Source of the DNA: a virus
Taxonomy: Duplodnaviria; Heunggongvirae; Uroviricota; Caudoviricetes
DNA length: 31,179 nt
IMG/VR virus record: IMGVR_UViG_2579779052_000007
Reading direction: 5' to 3' (one strand)
Positions 4,596 through 30,479 of this stretch are shown here, piece after piece; within the stretch, counting starts at the first letter, position 1, and each line of letters opens with the position of its first letter. A model generated the notes under the pieces. The model saw only the letters and a program-made list of their open reading frames with translations, searched no databases and was not told where the DNA came from. The position numbers were made by a program, and so were the translations under genes.

Positions 4596-5282
4596 ATGAC
4601 CCCAATAAAAATATTTATGACTATTGCTGATTTCAAACGGCCTAAATTGGAGCTCCCAAACGGGGCAAACAAACTACTACTGCACTCTTGCTGTGCTCCA
4701 TGTTCCGGTGAAGTGATGGAGGCGCTTCAGGCCTCGGGAATCGACTACACCATCTTTTTCTACAACCCGAACATTCATCCTCAGAAAGAGTATTTAATTC
4801 GTAAGGATGAAAATATTCGCTTTGCTGAACAACACGGCGTGCCGTTTATCGATGCTGATTACGACACCGACAACTGGTTTGAACGTGCCAAAGGAATGGA
4901 ATGGGAGCCTGAGAGGGGGATCCGTTGTACCATGTGTTTTGACATGCGTTTTGAGCGGACAGCGTTGTACGCTGCTGAAAATGGTTTCAGTGTGATCAGC
5001 AGTTCACTGGGCATTTCACGCTGGAAAAATATGCAGCAGGTTAACGAGTGTGGGCGGCGAGCTGTTGCGCATTATCCGGGTATGGTGTACTGGGATTATA
5101 ACTGGCGCAAGCAGGGCGGCTCGTCCCGTATGATTGAAATCAGCAAGCGCGAAAAATTCTATCAGCAGGAATATTGTGGCTGTGTGTATTCTCTGCGCGA
5201 TACCAATCTACACCGCAAATCTCAGGGACGCCCTCTTATCAAAATTGGCCAACTCCACTACGGAAAAGAAGAGAAGGAGTGA
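4596..5282 (+). CDS. queH: Epoxyqueuosine reductase QueH-like protein (DUF208 family)
   Basis: N-terminal [11 protein letters not shown] and C-terminal EYCGCVYS cysteine motifs as remembered for QueH; about 228 aa; stand-alone gene with its own upstream intergenic region. Confidence 0.6.
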
Positions 5283-5519
5283 TTTTATGGATCACCTTTC
5301 TGATTGATTTCATATTGGCGAGGTGACGTGAGTTAAGTAGAATGGCTGCGGGTGCTTGAGGCTATCTGTCTCAGGCATGAACACTGAAAGGCAGATAGAG
5401 AAAAGCCCCAGTTAACATTTCGCGTCCTGCAAGACGCTTAACATTAATCTGAGGCCCAATCTATGTCTCACAAATGTAGGTTAGCCTCTTACGTGCCGAA
5501 AGGCAAGGGGAAGCAGGCT

Positions 5520-5675
5520 ATGAAGCAGCAAAAGGCGATGTTAATCGCCCTGATCGTCATCTGTTTAACCGTCATAGTGACGGCACTGGTAACGAGGAAA
5601 GACCTCTGCGAGGTACGACTCCGAACCGGCCAGACGGAGGTCGCTGTCTTCACAGCTTACGAACCTGAGGAGTAA
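5520..5675 (+). CDS. hokD: Hok/Gef-family type I toxin (HokD/RelF-like)
   Basis: 51-aa translation MKQQKAMLIALIVICLTVIVTALVTRKDLCEVRLRTGQTEVAVFTAYEPEE matches the Hok/Gef signature; an in-frame upstream start at 5463 gives a mok-like leader ORF. Confidence 0.75.
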   Translation: MKQQKAMLIALIVICLTVIVTALVTRKDLCEVRLRTGQTEVAVFTAYEPEE

Positions 5676-6116: not shown

Positions 6117-7172
6117 GTGCGGGTATTACTTCGACCTGTTCTGGTACCGGAACTCGGGCTGGTGATCGTTAAGCCGGGCCGTGAATCCATGCCGGTATTC
6201 CACAATACCCGGGTACTGGTGGAGCCGGAACCGAAAAGCATGCGTAATCTGCCGTCCGGGGTCGTTCCTGCCGTTCGCCAGCCGCTGGCGGAGGATAAAT
6301 CATTACTGCCATTTTTCAGCGACGAACGAGTGATTCGTGCTGCTGGTGGCGCTGGCGCATTGTCTGACTGGTTACTGCGCCATGTTAAATCCTGCCAGTG
6401 GCCACACGGCGATTATCACCACAGTGAAACCGTCATTCACCGTTATGGTACCGGCGCAATGGTGTTGTGCTGGCACTGCGACAACCAGCTGCGCGACCAG
6501 ACCTCCGAATCACTCGGGCAACTTGCTCACCAAAACCTGTCTGCATGGATGATTGACGTCATACGCCATGCAATGAATGGCTCGCAGGAACGGGAATTAT
6601 CGCTGGCTGAATTATCCTGGTGGGCGGTCCGCAATCAGGTGGCGGACGCGCTACCGGAAGCGGTATTACGTCGTTCGCTGGGGTTGCGTGCGGAAAAAAT
6701 CCGCTCAATGTACCGTGAAAGCGACATCGTACCGGGAGAGCAGACCGCCACCAGCATACTGAAGCAGCGCACAAAAAATCTTGCGCCGCTGCCTCACGCC
6801 CACCAGCAAACCCCGCCACAGGAAAAGACGGTGGTCAGCATTGCCGTTGATCCGGAGTCACCGGCTCAGTATCTCCAGCGCCAGAAATCACAACGGGAAG
6901 AGATGCCTGTATACACGCGTTGGGTAAAAACGCAGAAATGCATGACGTGTGGCAATCAGGCAGATGATCCGCATCACATCATTGGTCATGGACTGGGAGG
7001 GATGGGAACAAAGGCTGATGATTTGTTTGTTATTCCGCTGTGCCGTAAATGCCATAGCGAACTACACGCCGGGGTAAAAGATTTTGAAGAAAAACACGGC
7101 AGCCAGCTGTTGTTGCTGATTCGTTTTTTAATGCACGCGAGAAATTCGGGTGTTCTGAAGTGGAAAGCATAA
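6117..7172 (+). CDS. DUF968 (YdfU-like) nin-region protein with a C-terminal Cys/His cluster
   Basis: 351-aa ORF with GTG start; C-terminal CMTCGN...HHIIGH...CRKCHSELH; synteny hok-rem-ydfU-rusA-Q as in Qin. Confidence 0.5.
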   Translation: MRVLLRPVLVPELGLVIVKPGRESMPVFHNTRVLVEPEPKSMRNLPSGVVPAVRQPLAEDKSLLPFFSDERVIRAAGGAGALSDWLLRHVKSCQWPHGDYHHSETVIHRYGTGAMVLCWHCDNQLRDQTSESLGQLAHQNLSAWMIDVIRHAMNGSQERELSLAELSWWAVRNQVADALPEAVLRRSLGLRAEKIRSMYRESDIVPGEQTATSILKQRTKNLAPLPHAHQQTPPQEKTVVSIAVDPESPAQYLQRQKSQREEMPVYTRWVKTQKCMTCGNQADDPHHIIGHGLGGMGTKADDLFVIPLCRKCHSELHAGVKDFEEKHGSQLLLLIRFLMHARNSGVLKWKA

Positions 7173-7538
7173 ATGACTGAACGCATAGAATTTGTTTTGC
7201 CTTACCCGCCAACGGTGAACACTTACTGGCGACGTCGTGGCAGCACATATTTTGTATCAAAAGTCGGTGAGCGTTATCGCCGTGATGTGGCGCTTATTGT
7301 TCGCCAGCAGCAACTGAAATTAAACCTGTCCGGAAGGCCGGCAATAGAAATTATTGCAGAGCCACCGGATAAGCGTCGTCGTGACCTGGACAATATCCTG
7401 AAGGCACCACTGGATGTACTGACGCATGCGGGGCTGCTCATAGACGACGAGCAGTTTGATGAAATTAATATTGTGCGCGGTCAGCTTGTTCCTGGTGGGC
7501 GGTTGGGGATAAAAATCACAGAACTGGAGTACGCATGA
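7173..7538 (+). CDS. rusA: Holliday junction resolvase RusA
   Basis: 121 aa with RusA-like motifs (RRRDLDN, catalytic Asp region, GGRL); positioned just before the Q-like gene. Confidence 0.8.
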   Translation: MTERIEFVLPYPPTVNTYWRRRGSTYFVSKVGERYRRDVALIVRQQQLKLNLSGRPAIEIIAEPPDKRRRDLDNILKAPLDVLTHAGLLIDDEQFDEINIVRGQLVPGGRLGIKITELEYA

Positions 7539-8224
7539 ATAACCAGTATTTACAGTTTGTTCGTGAGCAACTCATGATTGCCACCGCCGATTTGAGTGGA
7601 TCAACAAAAGGGCAGCTTGAGGCCTGGCAGGAGAATGCCATGTTTGATACAGGGCGTTACAGGCGTAAAAAAATCCGGTACCGCGATGAAGTGACTGGAA
7701 AAATGATAACGCGGGATAATCCACCAATCCCGGGAAAGCAATCGCTGGCGAAGGGGGTGTCAATTCCTCTCGTCAGTCCGGTTGAGTTTTCGACATCATC
7801 GTGGCGGCGGGCTGTTCTGTCTCTTGAAGAACATCATAAAGCCTGGTTGTTGTGGTGTTACAGCGGGAGTATTTGTTGGGAATATCAGATCGCGATAACG
7901 CAGTGGGTGTGGAATGAATTTAAAACCCGGTACGGCACCAGAAAAATTGCAGGGAAAACGCAGGAGCGCGTGAAGAAGTTGATCTGGCTGGCGGCACAGG
8001 ATGTCAGAGGATGGATTACCGGGTGTGAGGTCTACCAGAGACAGGAGCTTGCCAGACTGTGTGGAGTTAAGCCTGATAACTGGAGCCATAATTATGCGAA
8101 CTACTGGCGTGAGATGTGCGATATTTTTAAGAGTCTCGATAGAGAATCTGTGATTTGCACCGTGAAAATAAGAGCGCAACAAAAAGCGACTTTTTCACGA
8201 CGAGATATTGCAAAAGTCAATTAA
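7535..8224 (+). CDS. Putative late antiterminator Q-like protein
   Basis: 229-aa ORF overlapping the rusA stop (ATGA); position after rusA and before a short terminated leader; not lambda-Q-like by eye, so family unconfirmed. Confidence 0.45.
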   Translation: MNNQYLQFVREQLMIATADLSGSTKGQLEAWQENAMFDTGRYRRKKIRYRDEVTGKMITRDNPPIPGKQSLAKGVSIPLVSPVEFSTSSWRRAVLSLEEHHKAWLLWCYSGSICWEYQIAITQWVWNEFKTRYGTRKIAGKTQERVKKLIWLAAQDVRGWITGCEVYQRQELARLCGVKPDNWSHNYANYWREMCDIFKSLDRESVICTVKIRAQQKATFSRRDIAKVN

Positions 8225-8292
8225 ATAGCGTACGTTTCGTATAAATCTGATATTTTGCCGATTTTGTACGCGATGGCAAAGTAAGAAAAAAA

Positions 8293-8315
8293 CTGCCGTC
8301 AGGCGGTTTTTTTTT
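8293..8315 (+). terminator. Rho-independent terminator about 70 nt after Q (tR'-like)
   Basis: CTGCC-GTCA-GGCGG hairpin followed by T9. Confidence 0.45.
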
Positions 8316-8437
8316 ATGCCCAAAATCGCGTCAGTACAGTAAACACGCTGGTGGTTGCGAATACGGGTCTTTCAGCTTGCTGGCTTTTTCGACAAGAGTT
8401 ATTGGTATGTCACGTTAACCGGAAAAAGGAAAAAGAC

Positions 8438-8635
8438 ATGCTAAAACAGCAGGATATGACAGAAACCGCCAGAGTGGTGTTTAATGAATTAAGCGTTACC
8501 GAACCGGCGACAGTCGGGGAGATAGCGCAGAATACTTACCTTTCACGCGAACGCTGCCAGTTAATACTGACCCAGCTGGTTATGGCGGGTCTGGCAGACT
8601 ATCAGTTCGGTTGTTACAGACGCCTTCAGTCCTGA
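8438..8635 (+). CDS. Hypothetical small protein
   Basis: 65-aa ORF from an internal ATG of the track ORF 8351-8635; followed by a hairpin plus T-run at about 8620-8648. Confidence 0.3.
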   Translation: MLKQQDMTETARVVFNELSVTEPATVGEIAQNTYLSRERCQLILTQLVMAGLADYQFGCYRRLQS

Positions 8636-8785
8636 AGGCTTTTTTATTTGTGGTAAATGGGCGGCTGGTGGGTGTTAGGGGCACCCACCAGCCATCTGCT
8701 CATGCGTTGGGTTCACAAGCAAACCTCAGGCCCACTGCTTTGCGCAAAAGCAGAATGAGCCTATCAGAGACAGGCTTAATGATCC

Positions 8786-9835
8786 ATGCTTAATACTGTA
8801 AAAATATCCAGTTGTGAGTTAATCAACGCCGACTGCCTGGAATTTATCCGGTCGTTACCCGAAAATTCTGTTGACCTGATAGTCACGGACCCGCCGTACT
8901 TTAAAGTGAAGCCTGAGGGCTGGGATAACCAGTGGAAGGGCGACGATGATTACCTGAAGTGGCTGGACCAGTGTCTGGCGCAGTTCTGGCGGGTGCTGAA
9001 ACCTGTCGGAAGTCTTTACCTGTTCTGTGGTCATCGCCTGGCATCTGATATCGAAATCATGATGCGTGAACGCTTCAGTGTGCTGAACCATATTATCTGG
9101 GCGAAGCCGTCCGGACGCTGGAACGGATGCAACAAGGAAAGCCTGCGGGCGTATTTCCCCGCCACAGAGCGCATTCTGTTCGCGGAACATTATCAGGGGC
9201 CGTATCGTCCGAAAGATGCCGGGTATGCGGCGAAGGGCAGTGCACTGAAACAGCATGTGATGGCCCCGCTGATTTCTTACTTTCGTGATGCGCGCGCTGC
9301 CCTGGGGATAACGGCAAAACAGATTGCAGATGCCACAGGAAAGAAAAACATGGTGTCGCACTGGTTCAGTGCCAGTCAGTGGCAGCTACCGAACGAAAGC
9401 GATTATCTGAAATTACAGTCGCTGTTTGCCCGGGTGGCAGAAGAGAAACATCAGCGCGGTGAACTGGAAAAGCCCCACCACCAGCTGGTGGATACGTATA
9501 CGTCACTGAACCGGCAGTATGTGGAGCTGCAGAGTGAATATAAGCATCTGCGGCGGTATTTTGGTGTGACGGCGCAGGTGCCGTACACGGATGTGTGGAC
9601 ACATAAACCGGTGCAGTTCTATCCCGGGAAACATCCGTGCGAAAAACCGGCAGAAATGCTGCAGCAGATAATCAGCGCAAGCAGTCGTCCGGGTGACCTG
9701 GTTGCAGATTTTTTTATGGGCTCAGGTTCAACGGTAAAAGCGGCACTGGCGCTTGGGCGTCGTGCGATTGGCGTTGAACTGGAGACCGGACGTTTTGAGC
9801 AGACAGTCAGGGAAGTTCAGGATTTAATCGTTTGA
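8786..9835 (+). CDS. Orphan DNA methyltransferase (N6-adenine/N4-cytosine family, DPPY motif)
   Basis: DPPY catalytic motif near the N-terminus (VTDPPYF) and a C-terminal AdoMet-binding-like FFMGSGST; no adjacent restriction endonuclease. Confidence 0.8.
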   Translation: MLNTVKISSCELINADCLEFIRSLPENSVDLIVTDPPYFKVKPEGWDNQWKGDDDYLKWLDQCLAQFWRVLKPVGSLYLFCGHRLASDIEIMMRERFSVLNHIIWAKPSGRWNGCNKESLRAYFPATERILFAEHYQGPYRPKDAGYAAKGSALKQHVMAPLISYFRDARAALGITAKQIADATGKKNMVSHWFSASQWQLPNESDYLKLQSLFARVAEEKHQRGELEKPHHQLVDTYTSLNRQYVELQSEYKHLRRYFGVTAQVPYTDVWTHKPVQFYPGKHPCEKPAEMLQQIISASSRPGDLVADFFMGSGSTVKAALALGRRAIGVELETGRFEQTVREVQDLIV

Positions 9836-9884
9836 AACGGATGAGATTGCAGAATTAATTACGCACCATTATTATTCTGCTCCC

Positions 9885-9960
9885 GGCCCTTTAGCTCAGT
9901 GGTGAGAGCGAGCGACTCATAATCGCCAGGTCGCTGGTTCAAATCCAGCAAGGGCCACCA
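9885..9960 (+). tRNA. ileZ: tRNA-Ile2 (anticodon CAU, lysidine type)
   Basis: 76 nt ending in CCA; anticodon loop CTCATAA; near-identical by eye to the remembered E. coli tRNA-Ile2. Confidence 0.8.
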
Positions 9961-9967
9961 TCACATA

Positions 9968-10044
9968 CCGCCATTAGCTCATCAGGAAAGAGCGCCAGCT
10001 TTCGAAGCTGGTTGCGCGGAGTTCGGGTCCCCGAAGGCGGTCCA
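9968..10044 (+). tRNA. argN: tRNA-Arg (anticodon UCG)
   Basis: 77 nt with CCA; D-arm AGCTCATCAGG...GAGC; anticodon loop TTTCGAA between a CCAGC/GCTGG stem. Confidence 0.65.
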
Positions 10045-10057
10045 TTATCTGTATCCT

Positions 10058-10134
10058 GCGTTGTTAGCTCAGCCGGACAGAGCAATTGCCTTCTAAGCAA
10101 TCGGTCACTGGTTCGAATCCAGTACAACGCGCCA
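10058..10134 (+). tRNA. argO: tRNA-Arg (anticodon UCU)
   Basis: 77 nt with CCA; anticodon loop CTTCTAA; T-loop GGTTCGAATCC; acceptor stem GCGTTGT/ACAACGC. Confidence 0.8.
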
Positions 10135-10149
10135 CACTTATTTTCCCTG

Positions 10150-10172
10150 GCTCGCTTTTGCGGGCTTTTTTT
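10150..10172 (+). terminator. Rho-independent terminator after the tRNA cluster
   Basis: GCTCGC-TTTT-GCGGGC hairpin followed by T7. Confidence 0.5.
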
Positions 10173-10178
10173 AAATGT

Positions 10179-10392
10179 CTCACAATTCAGGCGGTTGACT
10201 GTTGTCTGGTTTGCGGGGAGTTTGTTAAAAGAAACTGGCATGGTGAATCCCCCTGTGCGGAGGGGCAATCAGCGAGTAGGTATATGGGATAATCGCGGAT
10301 TCAGGTGCTGGTACTGAATTCACCGGGAGGCACCCAGCACCATGCAATGGCACATAGCGCCACTCTCCAGCCCCTCTCCGGAGGGGCTTTTC
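10179..10392 (+). ncRNA. Candidate small RNA / late-promoter-terminator unit, copy 1
   Basis: Conserved CTCACAATTCAG box, TTGACT at 10195-10200, flanking inverted repeat GCATGGTG (10238-10245) / CACCATGC (10338-10345), terminator CCCCTC-TCCG-GAGGGG plus T-run at 10371-10392; no convincing ORF. Confidence 0.35.
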
Positions 10393-10646
10393 TGTGCCGG
10401 ATACATCACAGTTTCTGGAACCTTAGGTACTACAGTATCAGTCAGGGTGCTATATTTTCAGATGTGATGAAAGCCTGTCAGCAGGCAGGGCGTATCGGAA
10501 ATGACCCAGTAGAGAAAACGTTGACTCAGATACCGGTGCTGAGTTACCGGGAAACCGGCATCACATGACCGCTATCCTTCCAGGCCCATCCGCTCCGGTG
10601 GGCCTTTTTACTGCAGAAAACAGGTTCCCCGTTAAATGCTATGTTG

Positions 10647-10880
10647 CTCACAATTCAGTAAGTTGACAGTTGCCTGTCAGACTGGGCATTTGTTAAAAAA
10701 ATTTCGCATGGTGAATCCCCCTGAGCGGAGGGGCGACTGGTGACGGTATAATCTCTGATTATCAAAACGAGAATGACGCGGGTTTAGTGGCACCGGGCTG
10801 AACTCACCGGGAGGCACCCGGCACCATGTGCATGATGATACAGATACGCGGCTTTAGCCCCTCTCCGGAGGGGTTTTCTT
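10647..10880 (+). ncRNA. Candidate small RNA / late-promoter-terminator unit, copy 2 (paralogue of 10179-10392)
   Basis: Same architecture: CTCACAATTCAG, TTGACA at 10663-10668, GCATGGTG (10706-10713) / CACCATG (10822-10828), TATAAT at 10747-10752, terminator at 10858-10880. Confidence 0.35.
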
Positions 10881-11108
10881 GTGGGCAAAAAAAGCCCGCG
10901 CTGGGAGACGCGGGCGGCAAGGAATAAACAATAAAACGTGAAGTAATATTTCAGCTGGCGAATAATATCCGACAGTAATCACTCTGCGCAATAGCGCGGC
11001 CTTTTTCGTATTGCGGGCTGTTGTCTCTCTTCTGCCATTGTCCTGTAACTTCCGGACTTCAGCCCGCTCCTCATTTTACTCACAATATTATCCCGGCCGG
11101 GAGGATTC

Positions 11109-12962
11109 ATGGCATTTAAACACTATGATGTTGTCAGGGCGGCGTCGCCGTCAGATCTTGCGGAAAAGCTGACACATAAACTGAAAGAGGGCTGGCAGCC
11201 GTTTGGTAGTCCGGTGGCCATAACCCCTTATACCCTGATGCAGGCGATTGCAGCAGAAGGTGATGTGGTCGTCAGTGGTGCAACTGAGCCGGAGTGGTAC
11301 TACGTCATCGTACTGGCCGGGCAGTCCAATGCCATGGCTTACGGTGAAGGGCTTCCGCTTCCGGATTCATACGATGCGCCCCATCCGCGCATTAAGCAAC
11401 TGGCCCGTCGTAACACAGTGACTCCCGGTGGTGAAGTATGCGTATTTAACGACATCATTCCTGCTGACCATTGTCTGCATGATGTTCAGGATATGAGTAC
11501 GATTAACCATCCCCGGGCTGACCTGAGCAAAGGGCAGTACGGCTGTGTCGGACAGGGCTTACATATTGCCAAAAAACTGCTTCCGTATATCCCTAATAAT
11601 GCGGGGATCCTGCTGGTACCATGCTGTCGTGGTGGTTCGGCATTCACCCAGGGCGCGGAGGGGACATTCAGTGCGGACACGGGGGCCAGCCAGGATTCGG
11701 CACGCTGGGGTGTGGGTAAACCGTTATATCAGGATCTGCTTTTCCGCACGAAGGCAGCATTGCAGAAAAACCCGAAAAACGTTTTGCTGGCGATATGCTG
11801 GATGCAGGGGGAATTCGATATGACGAATGCCAGTTACGCCCAGCAGCCAGCAGCATTTCTTGCAATGGTACAGCAGTTCCGTGCTGACCTTACCGGGCTG
11901 GCGGCGCAGTGCCATGGCGGCAGTGCTGCAGTTGTACCGTGGATTTGTGGCGACACGACGTATTACTGGCAAAACACATACGGCACACAGTATGACTCCG
12001 TCTACGGCGCGTACAAAAACAGGGAGAGCGACAACGTTTTCTTTGTGCCGTTCATGACCGACGGTAACGGCAACAACACGCCCACCAACTTACCGGCAGA
12101 AGACCCGGATATTGCTGATGCAGGTTATTACGGCGCGCAATCCCGTAGTAATGGTAATTGGGTATCGTCAAATCGTCCGACACATTTCAGTTCATGGGCG
12201 CGCAGGGGCATTATTTCGGATCGCCTGGCAACCGCTATTCTGAACGCAGTTGGTCGAACCAGCGCCTTCATCAGCGGTACCGCACCGGAGATTAAACCCT
12301 CGCCCGGCGGCGACACTCCATCGGGGCCGTCTGATGGTGACACATCCGTTCGTACAGTCTCCCTGCTGCCGACAGCCGGAGAGGCTGCTGCGCAGGGCTG
12401 GACCATCACCGGCGGCAGTGTTGCGCTGGAAGATGGTGTGTTTAAGGTTACCAAGCAGAGCAATAAAACCTGGTCCCTGATGCATCCGGTGGATGACGCA
12501 GTCTCCCTGCTGACACGGGGTGGCAGACTGAGCTGTAAGTTTCGACTGTCAGGCGCACTGACCAACAACCAGTTCGGTCTGGGAATTTATCTGTATACCG
12601 ATGTAGCGTTACCTGACGTCGTGGCGATGACCGGGACTGGTAACCCGTTCCTGATGTCGTTCTTCACCCAGACCACAGACGGCAAACTGAATCTGATGCA
12701 TCACAAGAAAGCAGGAAACACAAAGTTGGGCGAGTTCGGGAATTACAGTAACGACTGGCAGACGCTGGAGCTGGTGTTCACCGCCAGCAGTGCCACGGTT
12801 ACTCCGAAACTGAATGGAGTGGCTGGCCCGGCATTCCAGGTCATAAAAGACAGTCTGACACTGGGGCTGAATGCACTGACGCTGACGGATATTACCAAAA
12901 ATGCAACGTATGGCGTTGAGATAGAAAGTCTGGTGCTGGAAATAAATAGTCCTGCAGCGTAA
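11109..12962 (+). CDS. nanS-p: NanS-p-type sialate O-acetylesterase (SGNH/SASA domain with C-terminal carbohydrate-binding-like region)
   Basis: 617 aa; GGAGG RBS; VIVLAGQSNAMAY motif of the SGNH/SASA esterase family; sits downstream of the phage tRNA cluster as the esterase gene does in Stx phages. Confidence 0.75.
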   Translation: MAFKHYDVVRAASPSDLAEKLTHKLKEGWQPFGSPVAITPYTLMQAIAAEGDVVVSGATEPEWYYVIVLAGQSNAMAYGEGLPLPDSYDAPHPRIKQLARRNTVTPGGEVCVFNDIIPADHCLHDVQDMSTINHPRADLSKGQYGCVGQGLHIAKKLLPYIPNNAGILLVPCCRGGSAFTQGAEGTFSADTGASQDSARWGVGKPLYQDLLFRTKAALQKNPKNVLLAICWMQGEFDMTNASYAQQPAAFLAMVQQFRADLTGLAAQCHGGSAAVVPWICGDTTYYWQNTYGTQYDSVYGAYKNRESDNVFFVPFMTDGNGNNTPTNLPAEDPDIADAGYYGAQSRSNGNWVSSNRPTHFSSWARRGIISDRLATAILNAVGRTSAFISGTAPEIKPSPGGDTPSGPSDGDTSVRTVSLLPTAGEAAAQGWTITGGSVALEDGVFKVTKQSNKTWSLMHPVDDAVSLLTRGGRLSCKFRLSGALTNNQFGLGIYLYTDVALPDVVAMTGTGNPFLMSFFTQTTDGKLNLMHHKKAGNTKLGEFGNYSNDWQTLELVFTASSATVTPKLNGVAGPAFQVIKDSLTLGLNALTLTDITKNATYGVEIESLVLEINSPAA

Positions 12963-12985
12963 GGAAGAACAGGAGAGCAAAACAG

Positions 12986-13453
12986 ATGCTTAAGACAAAC
13001 AGCCTCCGGAAGGGCATGATTCATGGGTGTCGCTGGTGTCAGGCCAACCCGGAAAAATTCACCATTTTCGTGGAGAGCGGCAACATTGAAACGACCGGAG
13101 AAACGCCCTCGTTTGTTTACCGCTATCAGATGGTGATGTTTGTCATGGATTACGCCGGGGAGCTGGACGACCTCACGCTGCCGCTACTGGCGTGGTTATC
13201 CGAAAATCAGCCGCAATTGTTGCTTAATCCGGAGCGTAATCAGGACATCAAATTCTCCGCCGTTATCAATGACGATGACAGCGCCGATCTCCTGTTTACG
13301 CTCCCTCTGCGGGAACGCGTTCGCATCACGCGCAGCAGTCAGGGGGCACCGCAGGCAGAACACCTGCAGGAGCCAAAACCCCGTCTGCCATCTTCCGAAG
13401 GCGACTGGTCGCATGTATTCCAGGATGTGACGTGGGGTGAAAGCGATGGATAA
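12986..13453 (+). CDS. R: P2 gpR-like tail completion protein
   Basis: 155 aa, the same length as P2 R, with recognisable similarity (LLAWL.ENQP segment); precedes an S-like gene. Confidence 0.65.
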   Translation: MLKTNSLRKGMIHGCRWCQANPEKFTIFVESGNIETTGETPSFVYRYQMVMFVMDYAGELDDLTLPLLAWLSENQPQLLLNPERNQDIKFSAVINDDDSADLLFTLPLRERVRITRSSQGAPQAEHLQEPKPRLPSSEGDWSHVFQDVTWGESDG

Positions 13454-14081
13454 GGCATTCACCCGCGTGGATGAAACCTTTGAGGCTATCCGCGACAGCC
13501 TGAATCAGCAGGCCATCAATAACATCGCCAGAAAGCTGGCACAGGATTTACGCCGCGCCCAGCAGGCGCGTATCCGGTCACAGAAAGCGCCGGACGGGAC
13601 CGCGTGGACACCACGCAGACGCCGCGTAACCCGGATACAGGAGCGCATTCGCTTTATCTGGAATAACGAAGCACGCACGCTGAAAAACTGGCATCACGAC
13701 ACGGGGAAATACGGGCGAACCATTACCGGGTGGGATGAGGATAAAAACAATATCCGCACGTTTTACCGGGATGACATCGACCGCTTTCTGGAAATACGCA
13801 CCCGGCGCATCAACCAGGACAGCACAAAGCGCGTCCCCATGTTCGTAAAACTGCGCACCGCCCGCTACCTGAAAGCCCGTGCAGATGCTTCCGGTGTGAC
13901 GGTGGGTTACAGCGGCGTGGCCGCACGTATTGCCCGCGTTCATCAGTTCGGTGAGCGCGATCAGGTTGCGCCGGGCATTTTCACCGATTACCCGGTACGT
14001 GAGCTGTTGGGCATCAGTCAGGCAGATGAACGCCTGATTTATAACACGGTGCTGGGCCGGATTGCGGAGGCTGTACGGTGA
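13446..14081 (+). CDS. S: P2 gpS-like tail completion / virion morphogenesis protein
   Basis: Overlaps the R stop and the V start (GTGA); start is either ATG 13446 or GTG 13437. Confidence 0.65.
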   Translation: MDKAFTRVDETFEAIRDSLNQQAINNIARKLAQDLRRAQQARIRSQKAPDGTAWTPRRRRVTRIQERIRFIWNNEARTLKNWHHDTGKYGRTITGWDEDKNNIRTFYRDDIDRFLEIRTRRINQDSTKRVPMFVKLRTARYLKARADASGVTVGYSGVAARIARVHQFGERDQVAPGIFTDYPVRELLGISQADERLIYNTVLGRIAEAVR

Positions 14082-14659
14082 GCGCAGAACTCATGCGACT
14101 GCTGAGCAACATCATCCGCACTGGGATCATCTCTGAAGTTGATGAGAAGTCCTGGTGCGTGCGCGTTCGCAGCGGCGAACTGGAAACAGGCTGGTTGCGC
14201 TGGAACACCACGCGCGCGGGAGCCTTCAATGTGTGGCTGCCGCCATCACCCGGCGAACAGGTGGTAATTGCCTGCATTGGCGGCAACCCGGAAACCGCCA
14301 TGATAATTGGCAGCCTGTGGAGTGATGCCAATCCGGCCCCCGGCAAAAGCCTGAAAGAAATCGTGGTCAGCGCGCCGGATGGCGCGGTGTTCCGCTACGA
14401 CGCGGACGCAGGCGCACTGAGCGCCAGCGGCATGAAAACGGCCACCCTGCAGGCATCCGTCAGTGTGACACTGGACACGCCCGTCGTGGAATGCACAGAC
14501 CTTCTGAGAACGGCGACGCTTGACGTCACAAAAGGGGGAAAGATGAGCGGCAATATCACGCACAGCGGCGGCAATTTCACCTCAAACGGCATCACAGTGC
14601 ATACGCATAAACACGGTGGCGTGAAAGGTGGCAGCGATTCGACAGGAGGCCCGCAGTGA
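14078..14659 (+). CDS. V: Baseplate spike protein, P2 gpV-like
   Basis: GTG start overlapping the S stop; GGAGG RBS; glycine-rich C-terminus typical of gpV spikes. Confidence 0.8.
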   Translation: MSAELMRLLSNIIRTGIISEVDEKSWCVRVRSGELETGWLRWNTTRAGAFNVWLPPSPGEQVVIACIGGNPETAMIIGSLWSDANPAPGKSLKEIVVSAPDGAVFRYDADAGALSASGMKTATLQASVSVTLDTPVVECTDLLRTATLDVTKGGKMSGNITHSGGNFTSNGITVHTHKHGGVKGGSDSTGGPQ

Positions 14660-15006
14660 CAACCCGCTACACAGGAATGAACCCGGACGGAACGGGAAAC
14701 CTGAACGATATGGAGCATCTGAAACAGTCAGTCAGGGACATCCTGACCACCCCGCTGGCAAGCCGGGTTATGCGACGGGAATATGGCAGCCTTGTGCCCG
14801 ATTTAATTGACGAACCCATGAATAACACCACTCGTCTGCAATGCATGAGTGCTGCCGTGATTGCGCTGACACGATGGGAACCCCGCATTGCCCTGGACGC
14901 CATCGACGTTGTCTGGAAGGCAGGAGGCCGCGCCGGGGTGACGCTGTCGGGCACTGTCATGCAGACCATGCAGAATGTTGAATTAACCATCACGCTGAGG
15001 GAGTAA
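14656..15006 (+). CDS. W: Baseplate protein, P2 gpW-like (gp25 family)
   Basis: 116 aa; GTG start overlapping the V stop; AGGAGG RBS; P2 gene order. Confidence 0.8.
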   Translation: MTTRYTGMNPDGTGNLNDMEHLKQSVRDILTTPLASRVMRREYGSLVPDLIDEPMNNTTRLQCMSAAVIALTRWEPRIALDAIDVVWKAGGRAGVTLSGTVMQTMQNVELTITLRE

Positions 15007-15009
15007 ATC

Positions 15010-15906
15010 ATGCCTGCCGTTGACCTTTCCCAGTTACCGGAACCCGCCATCATCGCGGAGCCTGACTTTGAGGCAATTCTGGCTGACACAAAGGCCATGA
15101 TGATTGCGTCCTATCCTGTCGAACAGCGTGAAGCCGTCTCCGCCGCGCTGGAGCTGGAATCGGAACCCCTGAACGTTATCGCCCAGACAACAGCGTTTCG
15201 TGAAATGCTGTTACGCCAGCGGGTCAATGAGGGGGCACGCGCCTGCATGTTAAGCCACAGCGCCGGGACAGACCTGGACAACCTCGCGGGCAATATGAAC
15301 ACAAAGCGCCTGACCATCACTCCGGCAACGGATACCACCGACGCAGTGATGGAAAGTGACACCTCGCTGAGACTGCGGGCGCAGCGGGCGTACGATGGCC
15401 TGAGTGTTGCTGGCCCGTCAGGTGCATACGAGTATTTTGCCCGCAGCGCCAGCGGTCTGGTGCGTGATGCGCGGGCTATCAGTCCGTCTCCGGCAAATGT
15501 GACGGTTTCCATCCTGTCCACTGAAGGCGACGGCACAGCAACGGAGGCGTTGCTTAATACCGTTCGCGCCGTTCTGAATGCAGAGGATACCCGCCCGGTG
15601 GCCGACCGCCTGACGGTACAGAGCGCCAGAATCGTGACATGGCGGCTGAATGCAAAACTGTACTTTTACCCCGGCCCGGAATCCGAACCTATTCTGGCGG
15701 CGGCTGAATCGTCGTTCAGGAAGTGGCTGGCTGAGCAGGGGCTTATCGGTCAGGACGTGGCGTTGTCCGCCATTGCTGCCGCACTGCATGTGCACGGTGT
15801 GCAACGCGTGGAGATAATCGAACCCACACAGAATATGGCCATCAGCGACATACAGGCGGCGCGCTGTGAGTCGTTCACCATCAGCGAAGGTGGGCGCAAT
15901 GAGTAA
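15010..15906 (+). CDS. J: Baseplate assembly protein, P2 gpJ-like
   Basis: 298 aa; RBS GAGGGAG; P2 size and order. Confidence 0.85.
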   Translation: MPAVDLSQLPEPAIIAEPDFEAILADTKAMMIASYPVEQREAVSAALELESEPLNVIAQTTAFREMLLRQRVNEGARACMLSHSAGTDLDNLAGNMNTKRLTITPATDTTDAVMESDTSLRLRAQRAYDGLSVAGPSGAYEYFARSASGLVRDARAISPSPANVTVSILSTEGDGTATEALLNTVRAVLNAEDTRPVADRLTVQSARIVTWRLNAKLYFYPGPESEPILAAAESSFRKWLAEQGLIGQDVALSAIAAALHVHGVQRVEIIEPTQNMAISDIQAARCESFTISEGGRNE

Positions 15907-16429
15907 TTCACTGTTACCACCATCAGCCAGCAGTTTCATGCGTTGTGCCGAAGCTGTCGGAACGCGCATTACAGACATCCCGGTAGACCTCAACACGCTG
16001 TGGTCGCCGGACACCTGCCCGGTGCACCTGCTGCCTTATCTCGCCTGGGCATTTTCCGTTGACCGCTGGGATCGCAACTGGCCGGAAGAGACAAAACGAC
16101 AGGTGATTCGTGATGCATGGCTGATACACCGACACAAAGGGACCATCAGCGCACTGCGCAGGGCCATTGAGCCGCTGGGATACCTCATTCGCGTGTCTGA
16201 GTGGTGGGAGTTCGGCGGAGAACCGGGAACATTTACCGTTGAAGTCGGCACACTGGACAGTGGCGTGACGGAGGAAATGTATCTGGAAATGGAGCGGTTG
16301 ATTGCTGATGCCCGTCCGGTCAGCCGCCACATGACAGGGCTGAATATCATTCAGGAAATTCCGGGGGATATTTTTGCAGCGGCGGCAACTCATGACGGTG
16401 AAGTTATTACCATTTATCCGGACGATTAA
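15899..16429 (+). CDS. I: Baseplate/tail protein, P2 gpI-like
   Basis: 176 aa, the same length as P2 I; start overlaps the J stop (ATGAGTAA). Confidence 0.8.
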
Positions 16430-16431
16430 GC

Positions 16432-18564
16432 ATGAGTACCACAACACGAAAATTTAAAACCGTTATCACCGATACAGGTGCAAAAAAATTAGCTCAGGCA
16501 GCCGCGCCAGATGGTAAGCCTGTCCGCCTGACTCATATGGCCGTGGGCGACGGTGGCGGCGCGTTGCCCACACCAGACAGTAAGCAGACCCGTCTGGTGC
16601 ATGAGGTGTGGCGACACACTGTTAATCGCGTCATCCTGGACGCAACACATCAGAACCGCATTATTGCGGAGCTGGTTATTCCTCCAGAAACGGGCGGATT
16701 CTGGATCCGGGAAATTGGTGTGTTTGATGAGCACGGCGATTTAATCGCGGTGGGCAATACTGCCGAAAGTTACAAGCCAGCCGTTGCCGAAGGGTCCGGA
16801 CGTGCACAAACATTTCGCACCATTCTGACCGTATCCAGCACTGCCACTGTGGCGCTTACCGTGGATAACACCATGGTGATGGCCACAGTGGATTACGTGG
16901 ATAACAAACTGAAAGAGCATGAACAGTCACGATGTCACCCGGATGCCTCGCTGACCGCAAAAGGCTTTGTTCAACTCAGTAGCGCCACTAACAGCGATTC
17001 TGAAACGCTGGCTGCAACGCCGAAAGCGGTTAAGGTCGCGTATGATCTTGCTAACGGAAAATATACAGCGCAGGATGCCACAACAGCGCGAAAAGGCCTT
17101 GTCCAGCTTAGTAGTGCAACCAACAGTACATCTGAAACGCTGGCGGCAACATCAAATGCAGTAAAAGCTGCCTATGACAATGCTGAAAAACGTCTGCAGA
17201 AAGCTAAGAATGGTGAGGATATCTCTGATAAAGACACCTTTACGAAAAATATCGGTGCCTGCCGTGCATATAGTGCAGAGCTGAATATTGGTGGAGATAG
17301 TGAAGCATGGACAACTGCGCAGTTGATTTTTTGGCTAGAGAGTCAGGGGGCATTTAACCATCCTTACTGGATGTGCAAAGGCTCATGGGCTTATGCAAAT
17401 AATAAGGTCATTACAGATACAGGTTGCGGAAGTATTTGTCTTGCAGGTGCTGTTGTGGAAGTTATTGGCACCCGCGGCGCAATGACCATACGCATTACCA
17501 CACCGAGTACATCCAGCGGTGAAGGCATCCCTAATGCTCAATTTACTTATATTAATCATGGTGATGCTTATGCTCCTGGCTGGCGAAGGGACTATAACTC
17601 CAGGAATAAGCCAACAGCATCAGAGATCGGGGCGTTACCGTCAGATGGGACAGCAGTATCGTCAGTTAATCTGGCTTCAAAAGGTCGGCTGACCGCCCTG
17701 ACAGATAATATGCAGGGGGCCACAGGTCTGGAGTTATACGAGGCGTATAACAACGGATATCCAACAACGTATGGAAATATCATTCACCTGAAAGGGATGA
17801 CAGCCGTTGGCGAAGGCGAATTACTCATCGGCTGGAGTGGTATAAGCGGTGCTCATGCTCCGGCATTTATTCGTTCACGACGGGATACGACCGACGCAAA
17901 CTGGTCGCCGTGGGCGCAGCTTTACACCTCGGCTCATCCTCCTGAAGAGTTTTATCCAGTCGGTGCACCGATTCCGTGGCCATCAGATACCGTTCCGTCT
18001 GGTTATGCCCTGATGCAGGGGCAGACTTTTGACAAATCTGCATACCCGAAACTTGCAGTCGCTTATCCGTCAGGCGTTATTCCTGATATGCGTGGCTGGA
18101 CGATTAAGGGCAAGCCCGGCAGTGGTCGTGCCGTATTGTCTCAGGAACAGGACGGCATTAAATCGCACACCCACAGCGCCAGCGCATCCAGTACGGATTT
18201 GGGGACGAAAACCACATCGTCGTTTGATTACGGTACTAAAACGACCAGTTCATTTGATTACGGCACAAAAACTACGAATAGCGCTGGAAATCATTCACAC
18301 AATATACCTGTTGGTCACACTGGCGCGGGGAATGGTGTATCAGCCGGTTATAACGCTGCGTTAGGTACTGGTACCACGTCGAGCGCAGGCGAGCATGCTC
18401 ACAATGTATATATCGGTGCCCATAACCACACTATCGGCATTGGTGCTCATGCCCATTCTGTCATTATTGGTCCCCACGGACACACCATCACCGTTAACGC
18501 TACGGGTAACGAAGAAAACACCGTAAAAAACATCGCATTTAACTATATTGTGAGGCTTGCATAA
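16432..18564 (+). CDS. H: Tail fibre protein, P2 gpH-like
   Basis: 710 aa; conserved gpH-type N-terminus; repeat-rich, histidine-rich C-terminal receptor-binding region. Confidence 0.8.
18201..18282 (+). repeat. Tandem 30-nt coding repeats within the tail fibre gene ([10 protein letters not shown], about 2.7 copies)
   Basis: GGGGACGAAAACCACATCGTCGTTTGATTAC / GGTACTAAAACGACCAGTTCATTTGATTAC / GGCACAAAAACTACGAATAGC. Confidence 0.55.
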
Positions 18565-19142
18565 TGACATTCAGAATGAGTGAACACTCACGGACCATAA
18601 AAATTTATAATCTACTGACCGGAACCAATGAGTTTATTGGTGAAGGTGATGCATACATTCCACCTCATACAGGTCTGCCTGCAAACAGTACCGATATTGC
18701 CCCGCCAGATATTCCGGCTGGCTTCGTGGCCGTTTTCAACAGTGATGAGGCATCGTGGCATCTCGTTGAAGACCATCGGGGTAAAACGGTTTATGACGTG
18801 GCATCAGGGGACTCGTTATTTATTTCTGAACTCGGTCCATTACCGGAAAATGTTACCTGGTTGTCGCCGTATGGAGAGTATCAGAAGTGGAACGGCACAT
18901 CCTGGGTGAAAGATGCAGAAGCAGAAAAACTGTTTCGGATAAGGGAGGCGGAAGAAACAAAAAACAGCCTGATGCAGGTAGCCAGCGAGCATATTGCGCC
19001 ACTTCAGGATGCCGTAGATTTGGATATTGCAACGGAGGAAGAGGCATCGTTACTGGCTGCATGGAAGACATACCGGGTATTGTTGAATCGTGTTAATACA
19101 GCGGTAGCAGCGGATGTTGAGTGGCCAGTCGCCCCACAATAA
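18564..19142 (+). CDS. G: Tail fibre assembly protein, P2 gpG-like
   Basis: 192 aa; start overlaps the H stop (ATAATG); position immediately after the fibre gene. Confidence 0.8.
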
Positions 19143-19185
19143 AGAGAAAAAGCCATCGATTGAAATATAGATGGCTTTATGTACT

Positions 19186-19758
19186 CTATTTATACAATAC
19201 AACACCGCTCTTTTTAGTTATATATGTGCAGTTCGATGGTATATCTTTATTTATAAAAGACATTGCACCTATTTTTACATTATCCCCAATTTTACGTGAT
19301 AATCCAATGATGCAACAATTAGCTCCGATATCAACGTTACTACCAATTTTTACTCTTGAACCAGGCATGTCACCATCTATCTGTCCAATGGTAGTATTCT
19401 GTCGTAACACCAGATTTTCACCAGCATCAACAGCAAAATGAACAACAATTCCAGCATGATGGGGAATTGTTAACCCTTTTCCAATATTTGCGCCCAATCC
19501 AATTTCACAACCAAATTTGTTAATTATTTTACTGTTTAACTTTTTGGCTGCTTTCTTATGTAATTTATTACCATTAATATACATTTCGTTAGCCAACCGC
19601 CACCAGAAAAGGAAATTCCGGTTACGCTGTTTTTTCTCTCTTAAAAGCCTCCAGATATCCATACGTTTCCGCCGAATTACTTCATATTTCCAGAAGTTTT
19701 TTAAATTAGTAGAGTCCCCAAATAAAACAAAGTGAATTGCCATTAAGTAAGACAGCAC
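19186..19758 (-). CDS. Hexapeptide-repeat (left-handed beta-helix) acetyltransferase moron
   Basis: AT-rich gene on the opposite strand; repeated G.N..IG hexapeptide pattern; GTG start at 19758 with AAGGAG RBS preferred over the upstream track ATG. Confidence 0.7.
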   Translation of the reverse strand: MLSYLMAIHFVLFGDSTNLKNFWKYEVIRRKRMDIWRLLREKKQRNRNFLFWWRLANEMYINGNKLHKKAAKKLNSKIINKFGCEIGLGANIGKGLTIPHHAGIVVHFAVDAGENLVLRQNTTIGQIDGDMPGSRVKIGSNVDIGANCCIIGLSRKIGDNVKIGAMSFINKDIPSNCTYITKKSGVVLYK

Positions 19759-19914
19759 GATAATCTCCTTAATTATTATTTCAGACCACACATATTATAA
19801 GGTTAAGAGATTATAAAATCCTGTTGTTTGTTATTCAAAAACAATTTTCTGAGAAGGACATACAACAGCAAGTCGCCAGTCACCTTCATCAGGAAATTGG
19901 CGACATACGTTAAA

Positions 19915-20409
19915 TCAGAGCAGCCCCTTAACTGAGCTGGTCGCGCTATTAAGGGATGATGTCACCTTATCTTTGAAGCCGGACAACATATCGCTGAACG
20001 ATGAGGATTGCAGGCGCTCCCGCAAATCCTCATCACAGCGTTCAAGAGTCAGTGAAAATTCTATCTTTTTCGCCTTACCGTAGCGATCAAACTCGGAGCG
20101 GGTCGTATTCGTTTCGGTCAGGACATACATGCCGTAAATCTGCCCGACGCCATCAATCAGAGGCCAGGGCCGTCCTGTATACGCCTGCGTGGTCAGCAGA
20201 GACAGCGACACTTCGCCACCTGTAATTTCAGGATAAAGCACACCAGAAAGAACGATGCGATCATCACCTGCACCGATATACTGCCAGCTTGCTGAACGGT
20301 TAACGCGTTCATTTTTCACATGCCGCCAGCTTTTGTTTTGCTGTAACTGCTGATGCGGCAGCGTGCGCAGCTCAAAAACAAACATGCCATAGATCATCAT
20401 CATGGCCAT
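19915..20409 (-). CDS. U: Tail protein, P2 gpU-like
   Basis: 164 aa; immediately downstream of the tape-measure gene on the minus strand. Confidence 0.75.
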   Translation of the reverse strand: MAMMMIYGMFVFELRTLPHQQLQQNKSWRHVKNERVNRSASWQYIGAGDDRIVLSGVLYPEITGGEVSLSLLTTQAYTGRPWPLIDGVGQIYGMYVLTETNTTRSEFDRYGKAKKIEFSLTLERCDEDLRERLQSSSFSDMLSGFKDKVTSSLNSATSSVKGLL

Positions 20410-20415
20410 GACTCC

Positions 20416-23259: not shown

Positions 23260-23424
23260 GCCAGCTAACCACTTCGCCGGGCGTCATCATGAAGATTTCG
23301 GCGGGCGACCAGTTAAAAATAACGGCAATATCTGCCACAAAGTCTTCTATGTGCTCAAAGCACACAACCGTGATCAGGCTTCCGTCGCCTGTTCGTTCTT
23401 CCCGCCAGAGTCCGCACCGCTCAA
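23210..23424 (-). CDS. E': E' extension reached by programmed -1 frameshift (gives the E+E' fusion)
   Basis: The -1 frame opens directly after the minus-strand heptamer and continues ERCGLWREERTGDG...WSPAEIFMMTPGEVVSWRERAAL to a stop at 23210-23212. Confidence 0.6.
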
Positions 23425-23739
23425 AAAATTTACGGCAACCACACATAACTGAATAAAGTCACGGGATGCCATTTTTTTGATCGTCACTTCATCCAGTCGC
23501 GGTGATGTCACGCGTGACAGCAACGTAAACATGGATTCCGCTTTCAGATTCAGCACATCAGACAGCGACAAATCTCGCAGAGATCCAGCCTGCTCAATAG
23601 CCCCGGTGATCTCCACATACGTGATTTTTTCGCCGCCTCGCTCAATTGGTTGGGTAAGTTTTACACCACGCTCACTGGTTTCTTTCACAGTGTCAGCAAC
23701 TACCGTGTTTTCGGTATCGATGTTTTTCGTCTCTTTCAT
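23374..23739 (-). CDS. E: Tail assembly chaperone, P2 gpE-like
   Basis: 121-aa ORF between the tube and tape-measure genes; contains the T TTT TTG slippery heptamer near its 3' end. Confidence 0.7.
   Translation of the reverse strand: MKETKNIDTENTVVADTVKETSERGVKLTQPIERGGEKITYVEITGAIEQAGSLRDLSLSDVLNLKAESMFTLLSRVTSPRLDEVTIKKMASRDFIQLCVVAVNFLSGADSGGKNEQATEA
23422..23428 (-). other. Slippery heptamer T TTT TTG for the E/E' -1 frameshift
   Basis: Plus-strand CAAAAAA at 23422-23428; in the E frame the minus strand reads AAT TTT TTG. Confidence 0.6.
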
Positions 23740-23793
23740 CAGGAAACTCCTTTCAGTCAGAGGCGACGCACTGCGCCGCCTGCATATTACTTA

Positions 23794-24306
23794 TCAGCCA
23801 AGCCCGAGCGCGGAACGGATGCGATCGGGCACAATGTCCTTGCCGTCCTTCCGGTAAATGAAGTTCAGCAGGTCAATCTCCCACAACGGGCGATCGTTAA
23901 CACTCAGCTTGTAGTAGGTGTTTTTAATGGCGTAAGTGTGTGATGTGGCTTCGCCCTGTTTGGCTTCCCCCATATCAATTTCCGTCACACGTCCGCGCAT
24001 TTCGACTTCATACAGGTCGCTTTCTGCATCGGTGTAATATTCACCCGCAAAACGCAGCAGCGTGCCGTCAATCGTGCCGCCATACTTAAGGAACAGCTCA
24101 CGAACTGCGCCCCCCATGACAAAGCTCGCATCAAGCGCGGAGTCGTCCAGACCGAGATCAATACTTACCGCACCCATCATGCCACCACCCCGGTAGCTGT
24201 CGGTTTTGCGCGTCAGCTTAGGCAGAGTGACGGACGTCACCTTACCCACTTCGTTTTCACCATCCACAAACAGCGTAAAAAAGCGAAGATGTTTTGGTAC
24301 AGCCAT
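23794..24306 (-). CDS. FII: Tail tube protein, P2 gpFII-like
   Basis: 170 aa; directly follows the sheath gene with overlapping start and stop. Confidence 0.85.
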   Translation of the reverse strand: MAVPKHLRFFTLFVDGENEVGKVTSVTLPKLTRKTDSYRGGGMMGAVSIDLGLDDSALDASFVMGGAVRELFLKYGGTIDGTLLRFAGEYYTDAESDLYEVEMRGRVTEIDMGEAKQGEATSHTYAIKNTYYKLSVNDRPLWEIDLLNFIYRKDGKDIVPDRIRSALGLG

Positions 24307-30177: not shown

Positions 30178-30264
30178 TGGTACCCGGAGCGGGACTTGAA
30201 CCCGCACAGCGCGAACGCCGAGGGATTTTAAATCCCTTGTGTCTACCGATTCCACCATCCGGGC
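30178..30264 (-). tRNA. leuZ: tRNA-Leu (anticodon UAA)
   Basis: 87-nt class II tRNA; reverse complement GCCCGGATGGTGGAATCGGTAGACACAAGGGATTTAAAATCCC...GGTACCA. Confidence 0.85.
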
Positions 30265-30276
30265 TCGGGAAGAAAG

Positions 30277-30350: not shown

Positions 30351-30403
30351 AAATTCTTCAGGCCTTTCAGCCAGACATCCGCTGACGCCGATGCCTTTTA
30401 AAC

Positions 30404-30479
<76 letters not shown>

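Follow-up and report, generated by a model that had tools for sequence, protein, structure and literature searches.

We describe here the surroundings of a DNA methyltransferase gene in a viral record (IMGVR_UViG_2579779052_000007; Caudoviricetes) whose whole stretch of 31,179 nucleotides (nt) is referred to as the window, and in particular positions 8225-9835, the analysis of which points to a late, silenced gene for a non-specific adenine methyltransferase preceded by a candidate regulatory RNA. The window belongs to a lambdoid, Qin-like prophage of Escherichia coli. All elements of the locus lie on the plus strand. The gene of a Q antiterminator of the Q82 family (7535-8224; 229 amino acids, aa) is followed by the putative late promoter pR' (8208-8236), a sigma-dependent pause element for Q loading as read from the sequence (8248-8267), the intrinsic terminator tR' (8286-8315), a small open reading frame (ORF) of 65 aa (8438-8635), a second intrinsic terminator (8622-8649), a structured 5' leader (8648-8791) and the gene of an orphan beta-class N6-adenine DNA methyltransferase of 349 aa (8786-9835). 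Beyond it lie a cluster of three tRNA genes (9885-10134; Ile2-type CAT, Arg TCG and Arg TCT), which is the ileZ-argN-argO set of Stx phages and shares the late transcript with the methyltransferase, and a terminator 3' of the tRNAs supported by a terminator scan and by folding (10149-10173), one of several further terminators that this transcript must pass. A sequence-only reading of the same DNA had placed an orphan methyltransferase between Q and the tRNAs, behind a short terminated leader, and each element it named was found where it had been placed.

The methyltransferase is a beta-class N6/N4 amino DNA methyltransferase. PF01555 spans residues 29-340 (E=2.7e-44), with the DPPY motif (residues 35-38; nt 8888-8899) N-terminal and the FxGxG motif, here FMGSG (residues 310-314; nt 9713-9727), C-terminal, both being invariant in 12 aligned homologues; PADLOC reports MTase_II (E=4.4e-167), and the nearest solved structures are those of beta-class methyltransferases. 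The immediate neighbours of the gene are Q, the small and probably winged-helix ORF and the tRNAs, and as no restriction endonuclease gene is annotated within 9-20 kb on either side in the identical prophages of E. coli CE10 and AR_0013, the gene is an orphan, in agreement with the earlier description of a DPPY methyltransferase with no partner endonuclease. It belongs to a known and characterised family, being an orthologue of M.EcoGII and M.EcoGI, the enzymes of the E. coli O104:H4 C227-11 prophages (Murray et al. 2018, PMC5778455). The protein is equal in length to M.EcoGII and shares with it 330 of 349 residues without real indels, an identity (at least 94%) that is a lower bound, the M.EcoGII sequence being a machine-read copy from the supplement of PMC11551740 with evident reading errors. 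Several of the mismatches (NHHIW for NHIIW, an extra R in GRRRAIG, TKVPQYYPGK) hit residues that are invariant in the 12 homologues and are for this reason probably reading errors, so that the true identity is likely about 96%. Between 13 and 19 substitutions separate the two proteins, about ten of them within residues 148-262, the linker and target-recognition region.

As published, M.EcoGII is a prophage-encoded beta-class enzyme of 349 aa that methylates adenine in any context and accepts double-stranded DNA, single-stranded DNA and RNA as substrates, and M.EcoGI is its paralogue, 16 of 349 residues apart; M.EcoGII is not expressed in its native lysogen, neither enzyme is expressed in normal growth, and constitutive clones are sick (PMC5778455). 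By length, identity and motif order, and as a prophage-borne orphan that is expected to be unexpressed in lysogens, the present enzyme resembles both, and it differs from M.EcoGII in the substitutions just mentioned and in that its activity is here a prediction. We predict for this allele context-free N6-methyladenine activity with no recognition motif, some doubt about specificity remaining because of the roughly ten substitutions in the linker and target-recognition region. That it might instead be a sequence-specific orphan adenine methyltransferase with a motif of its own, guarding against one particular restriction system, would fit those substitutions, the site specificity of most PF01555 enzymes with solved structures and the label 'site-specific DNA-methyltransferase' that NCBI gives the family. 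We nevertheless consider this very unlikely, as M.EcoGI, equally diverged from M.EcoGII, is also reported to be non-specific (PMC4659465), homologues of O111 strains with 92-93% similarity are listed as non-specific and give no methylation signal in lysogens (PMC6602927), and reconstructed ancestors of the clade, at far lower identity, are described as largely non-sequence-specific when assayed on RNA (PMC11551740). Phage 1720a-02, named in the last of these studies as carrying a very similar enzyme, matches the block at 94.8% nucleotide identity. The sequence-only reading had held that a failure to find a methylation motif attributable to the gene would speak against it, a test that is not valid for a near-copy of the motif-less M.EcoGII whose relatives are silent in lysogens.

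Upstream of the methyltransferase lies a late switch of the phage 82 type. The Q protein (phrog_304, E=6.9e-104) covers positions 1-217 of 220 of the PF06323 profile (E=1.4e-83), which represents the Q82 family (PMC9388147). When 34 distinct regions downstream of Q82-family genes, taken from viral contigs, are compared, conservation covers the final 20 nt of Q and ~65 nt beyond them, followed by a hairpin whose stem varies in sequence, its pairing and T-run always being kept. Invariant among these loci are TTGCAA (8208-8213), which as the -35 element of pR' sits within the 3' end of the Q ORF, a 17-nt spacer, TAnnTT (8231-8236; TACGTT as -10 element in the window) and TGATATTTTGCC (8248-8259). 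Published features of phage 82 pR' comprise an extended -10-like pause element, GCC at +15 to +17, an AT-rich stretch and U at +25 (Bird et al., PMC5001585), and the match to them fixes the register of a transcription start that we would place at A8243. With this +1, an extended -10-like TGaTATTTT falls at +6 to +14, the discriminator GCC at +15 to +17 (8257-8259), followed by an AT-rich tract, and U at +25 (8267). The stretch 8208-8267 fits every stated feature, a likeness judged by the features given in PMC5001585 and not by the phage 82 sequence itself, and pausing and Q loading are predicted from it. The resemblance extends to the PF06323 Q and the short terminated leader transcript, and ends with the cargo past the tR' hairpin, which varies between phages.

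The first terminator begins 70 nt past the Q stop codon and consists of A7, a 5-bp GC core stem (8293-8297/8302-8306) with the loop GUCA, and T9 (8307-8315), the scan placing its stem at 8295-8307; it folds at -12.3 kcal/mol (z=-4.6). Both the terminator some 70 nt beyond a Q-like gene and the pR'/tR'-like layout proposed for it earlier are borne out, the former by scan and folding and the latter by the detailed match to phage 82 pR' and the assignment of Q to PF06323. Terminator-like sites are strongly enriched downstream of Q, with 15 between 7400 and 11200 against 3.8 +/- 1.6 in shuffles. Termination at tR' would yield a leader RNA of about 71-73 nt, and the predicted terminated transcript folds into two hairpins. 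Given the symmetry of its A-run and T-run, tR' is possibly bidirectional. On the minus strand, 8280-8356 gives a sub-threshold Rfam match to the small RNA (sRNA) STnc370 (42.3 bits against a gathering threshold of 54, E=1.4e-4); such an RNA would end at A7-stem-T9, so that the tR' hairpin may also terminate a convergent small RNA. The terminator is also a mosaic joint, since it is precisely here that the sequence becomes similar to Stx2 phages (phiP27, 1720a-02, Stx2a_WGPS2 and many others), and Stx2 phages have a terminator of their own at the same joint. Stx2-converting and related lambdoid phages share the block of small ORF, methyltransferase and ileZ-argN-argO at 87-95% nucleotide identity, the matching tRNAs being annotated there as ileZ, argN and argO, and the late region of the Stx2-converting phages runs in the order small ORF, DNA methylase, ileZ-argN-argO, stx. 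The window differs from them in having copies of the sRNA STnc100 in place of stx, and a Q/pR' unit of another type.

The second terminator overlaps the stop codon of the small ORF and consists of a stem at 8622-8639, with 7 bp, and a T-run at 8640-8649 (TTTTTTATTT), folding at -10.5 kcal/mol (z=-3.4); in many other genera its hairpin is kept and the T-run is not. Neither this terminator nor the structured leader just ahead of the methyltransferase had been named in the sequence-only reading. At least two terminators precede the methyltransferase gene, and a consensus-based scan found no sigma-70-like promoter on the plus strand between 8225 and 8786. We compared this arrangement in 54 methyltransferase loci from one-genome-per-species contigs, which cover many genera of Enterobacterales (Salmonella, Klebsiella, Enterobacter, Citrobacter, Kosakonia, Mixta, Buttiauxella, Rosenbergiella, Lonsdalea and others). 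In 43 of them the methyltransferase is preceded on the same strand by a Q gene, which is often only 520-640 nt away and belongs to one of three unrelated families, Q21 (PF06530) in 19 loci, Q82 in 15 and Qlambda (PF03589) in 9; counted over 48 loci, the figure is again about 43. Distant relatives of the enzyme (54-64% identity) directly precede holin and lysozyme, and one of these has a TTGCAA-N17-TATAAT promoter and a terminator just upstream. Whichever Q is present, the gene appears as early cargo of a late operon, which fits the published silence in lysogens; to the homologues without expression or lysogen methylation already cited can be added that of EC958, 99% identical to M.EcoGI and predicted to be inactive from RT-PCR analysis (PMC4659465). 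In two Rosenbergiella loci (L123 and L124) the usual Q position, ~565 nt upstream of the methyltransferase, is taken by a DUF1133 protein (PF06576, E=3.4e-67), which may represent a further family of late-gene regulators.

The earlier suggestion that expression depends on antitermination is supported by the terminators, the lack of a promoter match, the onset of Stx2-phage similarity at the first terminator, the synteny with Q and the published silence of homologues. The prophage location of the gene is directly observed, and from the two terminators, the missing promoter match and the literature on homologues we infer that this copy too is silent in the lysogen. Expression independent of Q, from a promoter of its own or by early read-through, would make the enzyme an epigenetic regulator of the lysogen or a 'molecular vaccine'. 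Weak promoters can escape a consensus scan, terminators are never 100% efficient and regulatory orphan methyltransferases of prophages are known in other systems. Such expression is nonetheless highly improbable here, where no promoter-like site was found on the plus strand at 8225-8786, where two terminators and a structured leader lacking a Shine-Dalgarno sequence stand ahead of the gene, and where near-identical homologues leave no methylation in lysogens, that of EC958 is predicted to be inactive and constitutive expression is deleterious. Of the two roles that had been offered for the enzyme, protection of phage DNA from restriction is likely, whereas an epigenetic role in the lysogen is unlikely, because the enzyme is expected to have no motif and no signal is expected in the methylome of a lysogen that has not been induced.

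The small ORF behind tR', which had also been noted earlier, is a real gene (phrog_331, E=1e-37). In 33 of 52 genome loci it is found at a fixed site ahead of the methyltransferase, at an aa identity of 38-98%, and its homologues share an invariant helix at residues 37-48. Its product is a probable winged-helix protein; the Pfam match to TrmB (E=0.0024) falls below the cut-off, and database sources name the product 'TrmB family transcriptional regulator'. No NCBIfam or PADLOC model matched it, AlphaFold models are of low confidence (pLDDT 65 from the single sequence and 68 with 26 homologues), and a Foldseek search against the PDB returned nothing below E=4. That the small ORF and the methyltransferase must occur together was considered and rejected, the ORF being missing in about one third of the loci that still have the leader and the gene.

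What does accompany the methyltransferase are the 135-140 nt directly before its start codon, which travel with it with or without the small ORF and whatever lies upstream. The mean pairwise identity of this leader is 81.5%, compared with 74% for the coding sequence overall, 52% for its third codon positions and 36% for the DNA just upstream. A covariance model built from 45 sequences (R1) detects a single copy at each locus, which invariably ends at the start codon; in the window it recognises one copy (120 bits, E=1.5e-23) and none elsewhere. A methyltransferase gene follows the core of the motif in 111 of the 112 viral contigs that carry it, and in a divergent sub-clade, with methyltransferases ~64-73% identical, the leader is present in 68 of 80 loci; it was not found in relatives of at most 54% identity (45-54% examined). 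It is present in more than 100 loci across prophages of Enterobacterales and is restricted to the M.EcoGII clade. Against Rfam 15 no family matched at gathering thresholds, and with permissive filters the only match was a weak one of the leader hairpin to P26 (24 bits against a gathering threshold of 36). A coding upstream ORF was rejected as an explanation in view of one-nucleotide indels and of ORF lengths that range from 7 to more than 30 codons. Two candidate loci were set aside. The first, L262, seemed to be a 70%-identity relative without the leader and proved to be a C-to-T converted (bisulfite-type) assembly; in the second, L220, the DNA pattern of the leader core was matched by chance only. 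L262 is a Logan contig (SRR8137545), a public assembly of the same locus with every C read as T, apparently from a bisulfite-converted library, and contigs of this type surface in protein clustering as spurious 70%-identity 'relatives'.

In the window the leader is predicted to fold with a minimum free energy of -63.4 kcal/mol (z=-4.0). In the proposed structure the outer helix P1 (8657-8662/8698-8703) encloses the hairpin P1b (8663-8674/8682-8693), and two inner hairpins lie within 8728-8762. Long-range pairing brings together 8709-8713 and 8781-8785, and likewise 8704-8707 and the start codon (8786-8789), the AUG being itself paired. The long-range helix joins GGUCA-AAGC to GCUU-UGAUC, its 3' strand abutting the AUG, and no member of the leader family has a Shine-Dalgarno sequence before the AUG. 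The full fold model was derived from a closer alignment and then checked on a divergent one. In a structure-blind MAFFT alignment of 54 distinct sequences, 86.0% of cells are paired, against 29-44% with partners slid, and 19 pairs have changes on both sides; such changes amount to 166 cells, compared with 56.6 +/- 6.2 in shuffled alignments (none of 500 reaching this value), and the covariation score is 0.269 as against 0.157. The alignment fitted to the model gives 89.1% paired cells (32-44% with partners slid), 20 pairs with both-side changes, 211 such cells versus 65.3 +/- 7.0 shuffled (again none of 500) and a score of 0.330 versus 0.168. These counts are of non-independent events. Compensatory changes in the structure-blind alignment affect 10 of 13 pairs in P1b, and 5 of 10 in the long-range helix; of the inner hairpins, the first shows them in 3 of 6 pairs and the second in 1 of 5. 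From the divergent MAFFT alignment, RNAalifold retrieved no more than the first hairpin and an alternative long-range pairing, and the invariant UGGGC (8658-8662) has two possible partners, GCUCA at 8698-8702 or, as in the RNAalifold solution, GCCCA at 8730-8734.

These observations bear on whether the conserved 140 nt act as RNA at all, as they might instead be a feature of the DNA, such as a linker for recombination between modules or a protein-binding site. The stretch does lie where modules meet, in a phage family that is highly mosaic, and in the closest clade several helices are near-invariant, so that pairing there is uninformative. A DNA-level feature is still unlikely, for compensatory changes occur in four helices of an alignment made blind to structure, the sense strand fits the fold better than the antisense strand (95.7% against 87.4% paired) owing to G-U pairs, one-nucleotide indels rule out coding, and the element, which in every case ends at the start codon, accompanies the gene irrespective of what lies upstream. 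The structured RNA is the only potentially new element of the locus, and judging from its fold and position it is probably an mRNA leader that conditions or limits translation of a toxic enzyme. We would go further only tentatively, at slightly less than even odds, and suggest that it is an undescribed cis-regulatory RNA specific to methyltransferases of the M.EcoGII clade which gates translation of a promiscuous and lethal enzyme. Possible mechanisms include sequestration of the start codon that is relieved by processing of P1/P1b, a switch of partner by UGGGC and feedback by the RNA-methylating enzyme itself, and the processing of the ~19-bp P1/P1b stem could be of the RNase III type. Structured mRNA leaders that gate translation or are processed by RNase III are represented by the lambda N leader and by T7 R1.1-type sites. 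The present leader may be analogous to these in its long imperfect hairpin (~19 bp, with an internal loop) and its helix burying the downstream start, and differs in resembling no Rfam family by sequence or by covariance model. The accessible sections of the M.EcoGII publication contain no description of a Q/pR'/terminator context or of a leader RNA (PMC5778455).

We propose a model in which the gene is among the first cargo genes of the late operon of the prophage. In the lysogen, polymerase starting from pR' (+1 ~8243) would halt at tR' and yield only the ~72-nt leader RNA. After induction, the Q82-family antiterminator would load onto polymerase paused at about +25, and the modified polymerase would pass tR', the terminator at 8622-8649 and later ones, so that transcription would extend through the small ORF, the methyltransferase and the tRNAs into the late genes downstream. 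The enzyme would then methylate adenines of the replicating phage DNA in any sequence context, so that packaged genomes would be shielded from many adenine-methylation-sensitive restriction systems of the next host, and the lysogen would be spared a toxic activity. The folded leader without a Shine-Dalgarno sequence would bury the nucleotides next to the start and is probably an additional brake on translation or at the level of RNA processing. The model draws on the identity and catalytic motifs of the enzyme, the anatomy of promoter, pause site and terminators, the synteny with Q and the covariation of the leader, all observed here, and takes the non-specificity, lysogen silence and toxicity from the literature on M.EcoGII and M.EcoGI; from these we infer that the gene depends on Q in this element, that it serves anti-restriction and how the leader acts. 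Late expression under Q that serves broad anti-restriction appears well supported as an interpretation of the sequence, and we consider it probable that the gene is an M.EcoGII-type non-specific methyltransferase carried as Q-gated, anti-restriction late cargo of a lambdoid prophage. Orphan phage enzymes that pre-methylate progeny DNA against host restriction include the Dam-type enzymes of T4, T2 and P1 and the multispecific C5 methyltransferases of Bacillus phages, which belong to other methyltransferase classes and recognise defined sites or sets of sites. The M.EcoGII family differs from all of these in its lack of site preference.

Several points weigh against this proposal. The consensus-based promoter scan could miss a weak promoter or one not of the sigma-70 type, and the 13-19 substitutions relative to M.EcoGII would leave room for an altered specificity. 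Heavy adenine methylation would also expose the DNA to nucleases that depend on methylation, which limits how general the protection can be. In the leader, the helix adjacent to the start is mostly invariant, and the case for its pairing comes more from conservation and energy than from covariation. For this particular allele the evidence is one of sequence, from which its transcript, methylation and restriction behaviour are deduced. Finally, the element may be chimeric or defective. The DNA from 11288 to 25000 and beyond carries P2-like baseplate, tail-fibre, tape-measure and sheath genes with 98% identity to O103 and other strains, and the holin-lysozyme-terminase series that follows an identical Q-methyltransferase-tRNA block in the ompW prophages of AR_0013 and CE10 was not found in the window. 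As P2-like tail genes replace the lysis cassette, the element perhaps never yields virions. The module could then be a relic, an intact gene that no longer aids propagation of its carrier, which would be compatible with our proposal for the family as a whole. The ORF, motifs, promoter, pause site, terminators and leader are, however, all intact and 100% identical to copies in apparently complete prophages, and we regard a relic as unlikely, though with a modest chance of being correct.

If the proposal holds, the gene would be held under a layered lock made up of a late promoter that needs Q, two or more terminators, no visible promoter of its own and a structured leader without a Shine-Dalgarno sequence. 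M.EcoGII serves widely as a tool to map chromatin and RNA-protein contacts, and how phages silence so toxic an enzyme has so far been guessed. Across Enterobacterales the block of leader and gene is found downstream of each of the three unrelated Q families, in Shiga-toxin phages also ahead of stx, and the family of modules is very widespread, since 3460 of 5426 complete E. coli genomes match some part of the Q-methyltransferase-tRNA query block. Methylomes of lysogens are expected not to reveal the enzyme, and the DNA of induced phages may be hypermethylated, with consequences for restriction barriers, for phage host range and for the analysis of induced samples by nanopore or SMRT sequencing. 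As a candidate for a new regulatory motif, the leader RNA is readily amenable to study.

The wider setting is that of a lambdoid prophage. The stretch 7535-10200 is 100% identical to ompW-adjacent prophages in several complete genomes, including AR_0013 and 2017C-4173W12, and 99.9% identical to the copy in CE10. Upstream of Q lie a DUF968/HNH gene (6117-7172, plus strand) and a RusA gene (7173-7538, plus strand), both standard genes of the lambdoid nin region, and directly upstream of this nin-like region is a prophage-borne homologue of QueH (epoxyqueuosine reductase; ~4596-5282). A hok/sok-type toxin-antitoxin is found at 5350-5525 (sok RNA, 120 bits; the identical prophages have hokD annotated). 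Downstream, also on the plus strand, two tandem STnc100-family sRNA copies (10209-10399 and 10677-10886; 129 and 161 bits), each ended by a terminator, fill the slot between the tRNAs and an esterase gene in which Stx phages have stxAB. The esterase gene (11109-12962, plus strand) encodes a NanS-p-like SASA-family protein of 617 aa with DUF1737, a SASA sialate O-acetylesterase domain and DUF6645, and the switch of similarity at 11288 falls inside it. The Rfam family IS009 is matched over its full length at 18907-19105 (192 bits), within the P2-like tail-fibre region, and chromosomal Leu, Cys and Gly tRNA genes (30178-30479) lie at the end of the window.

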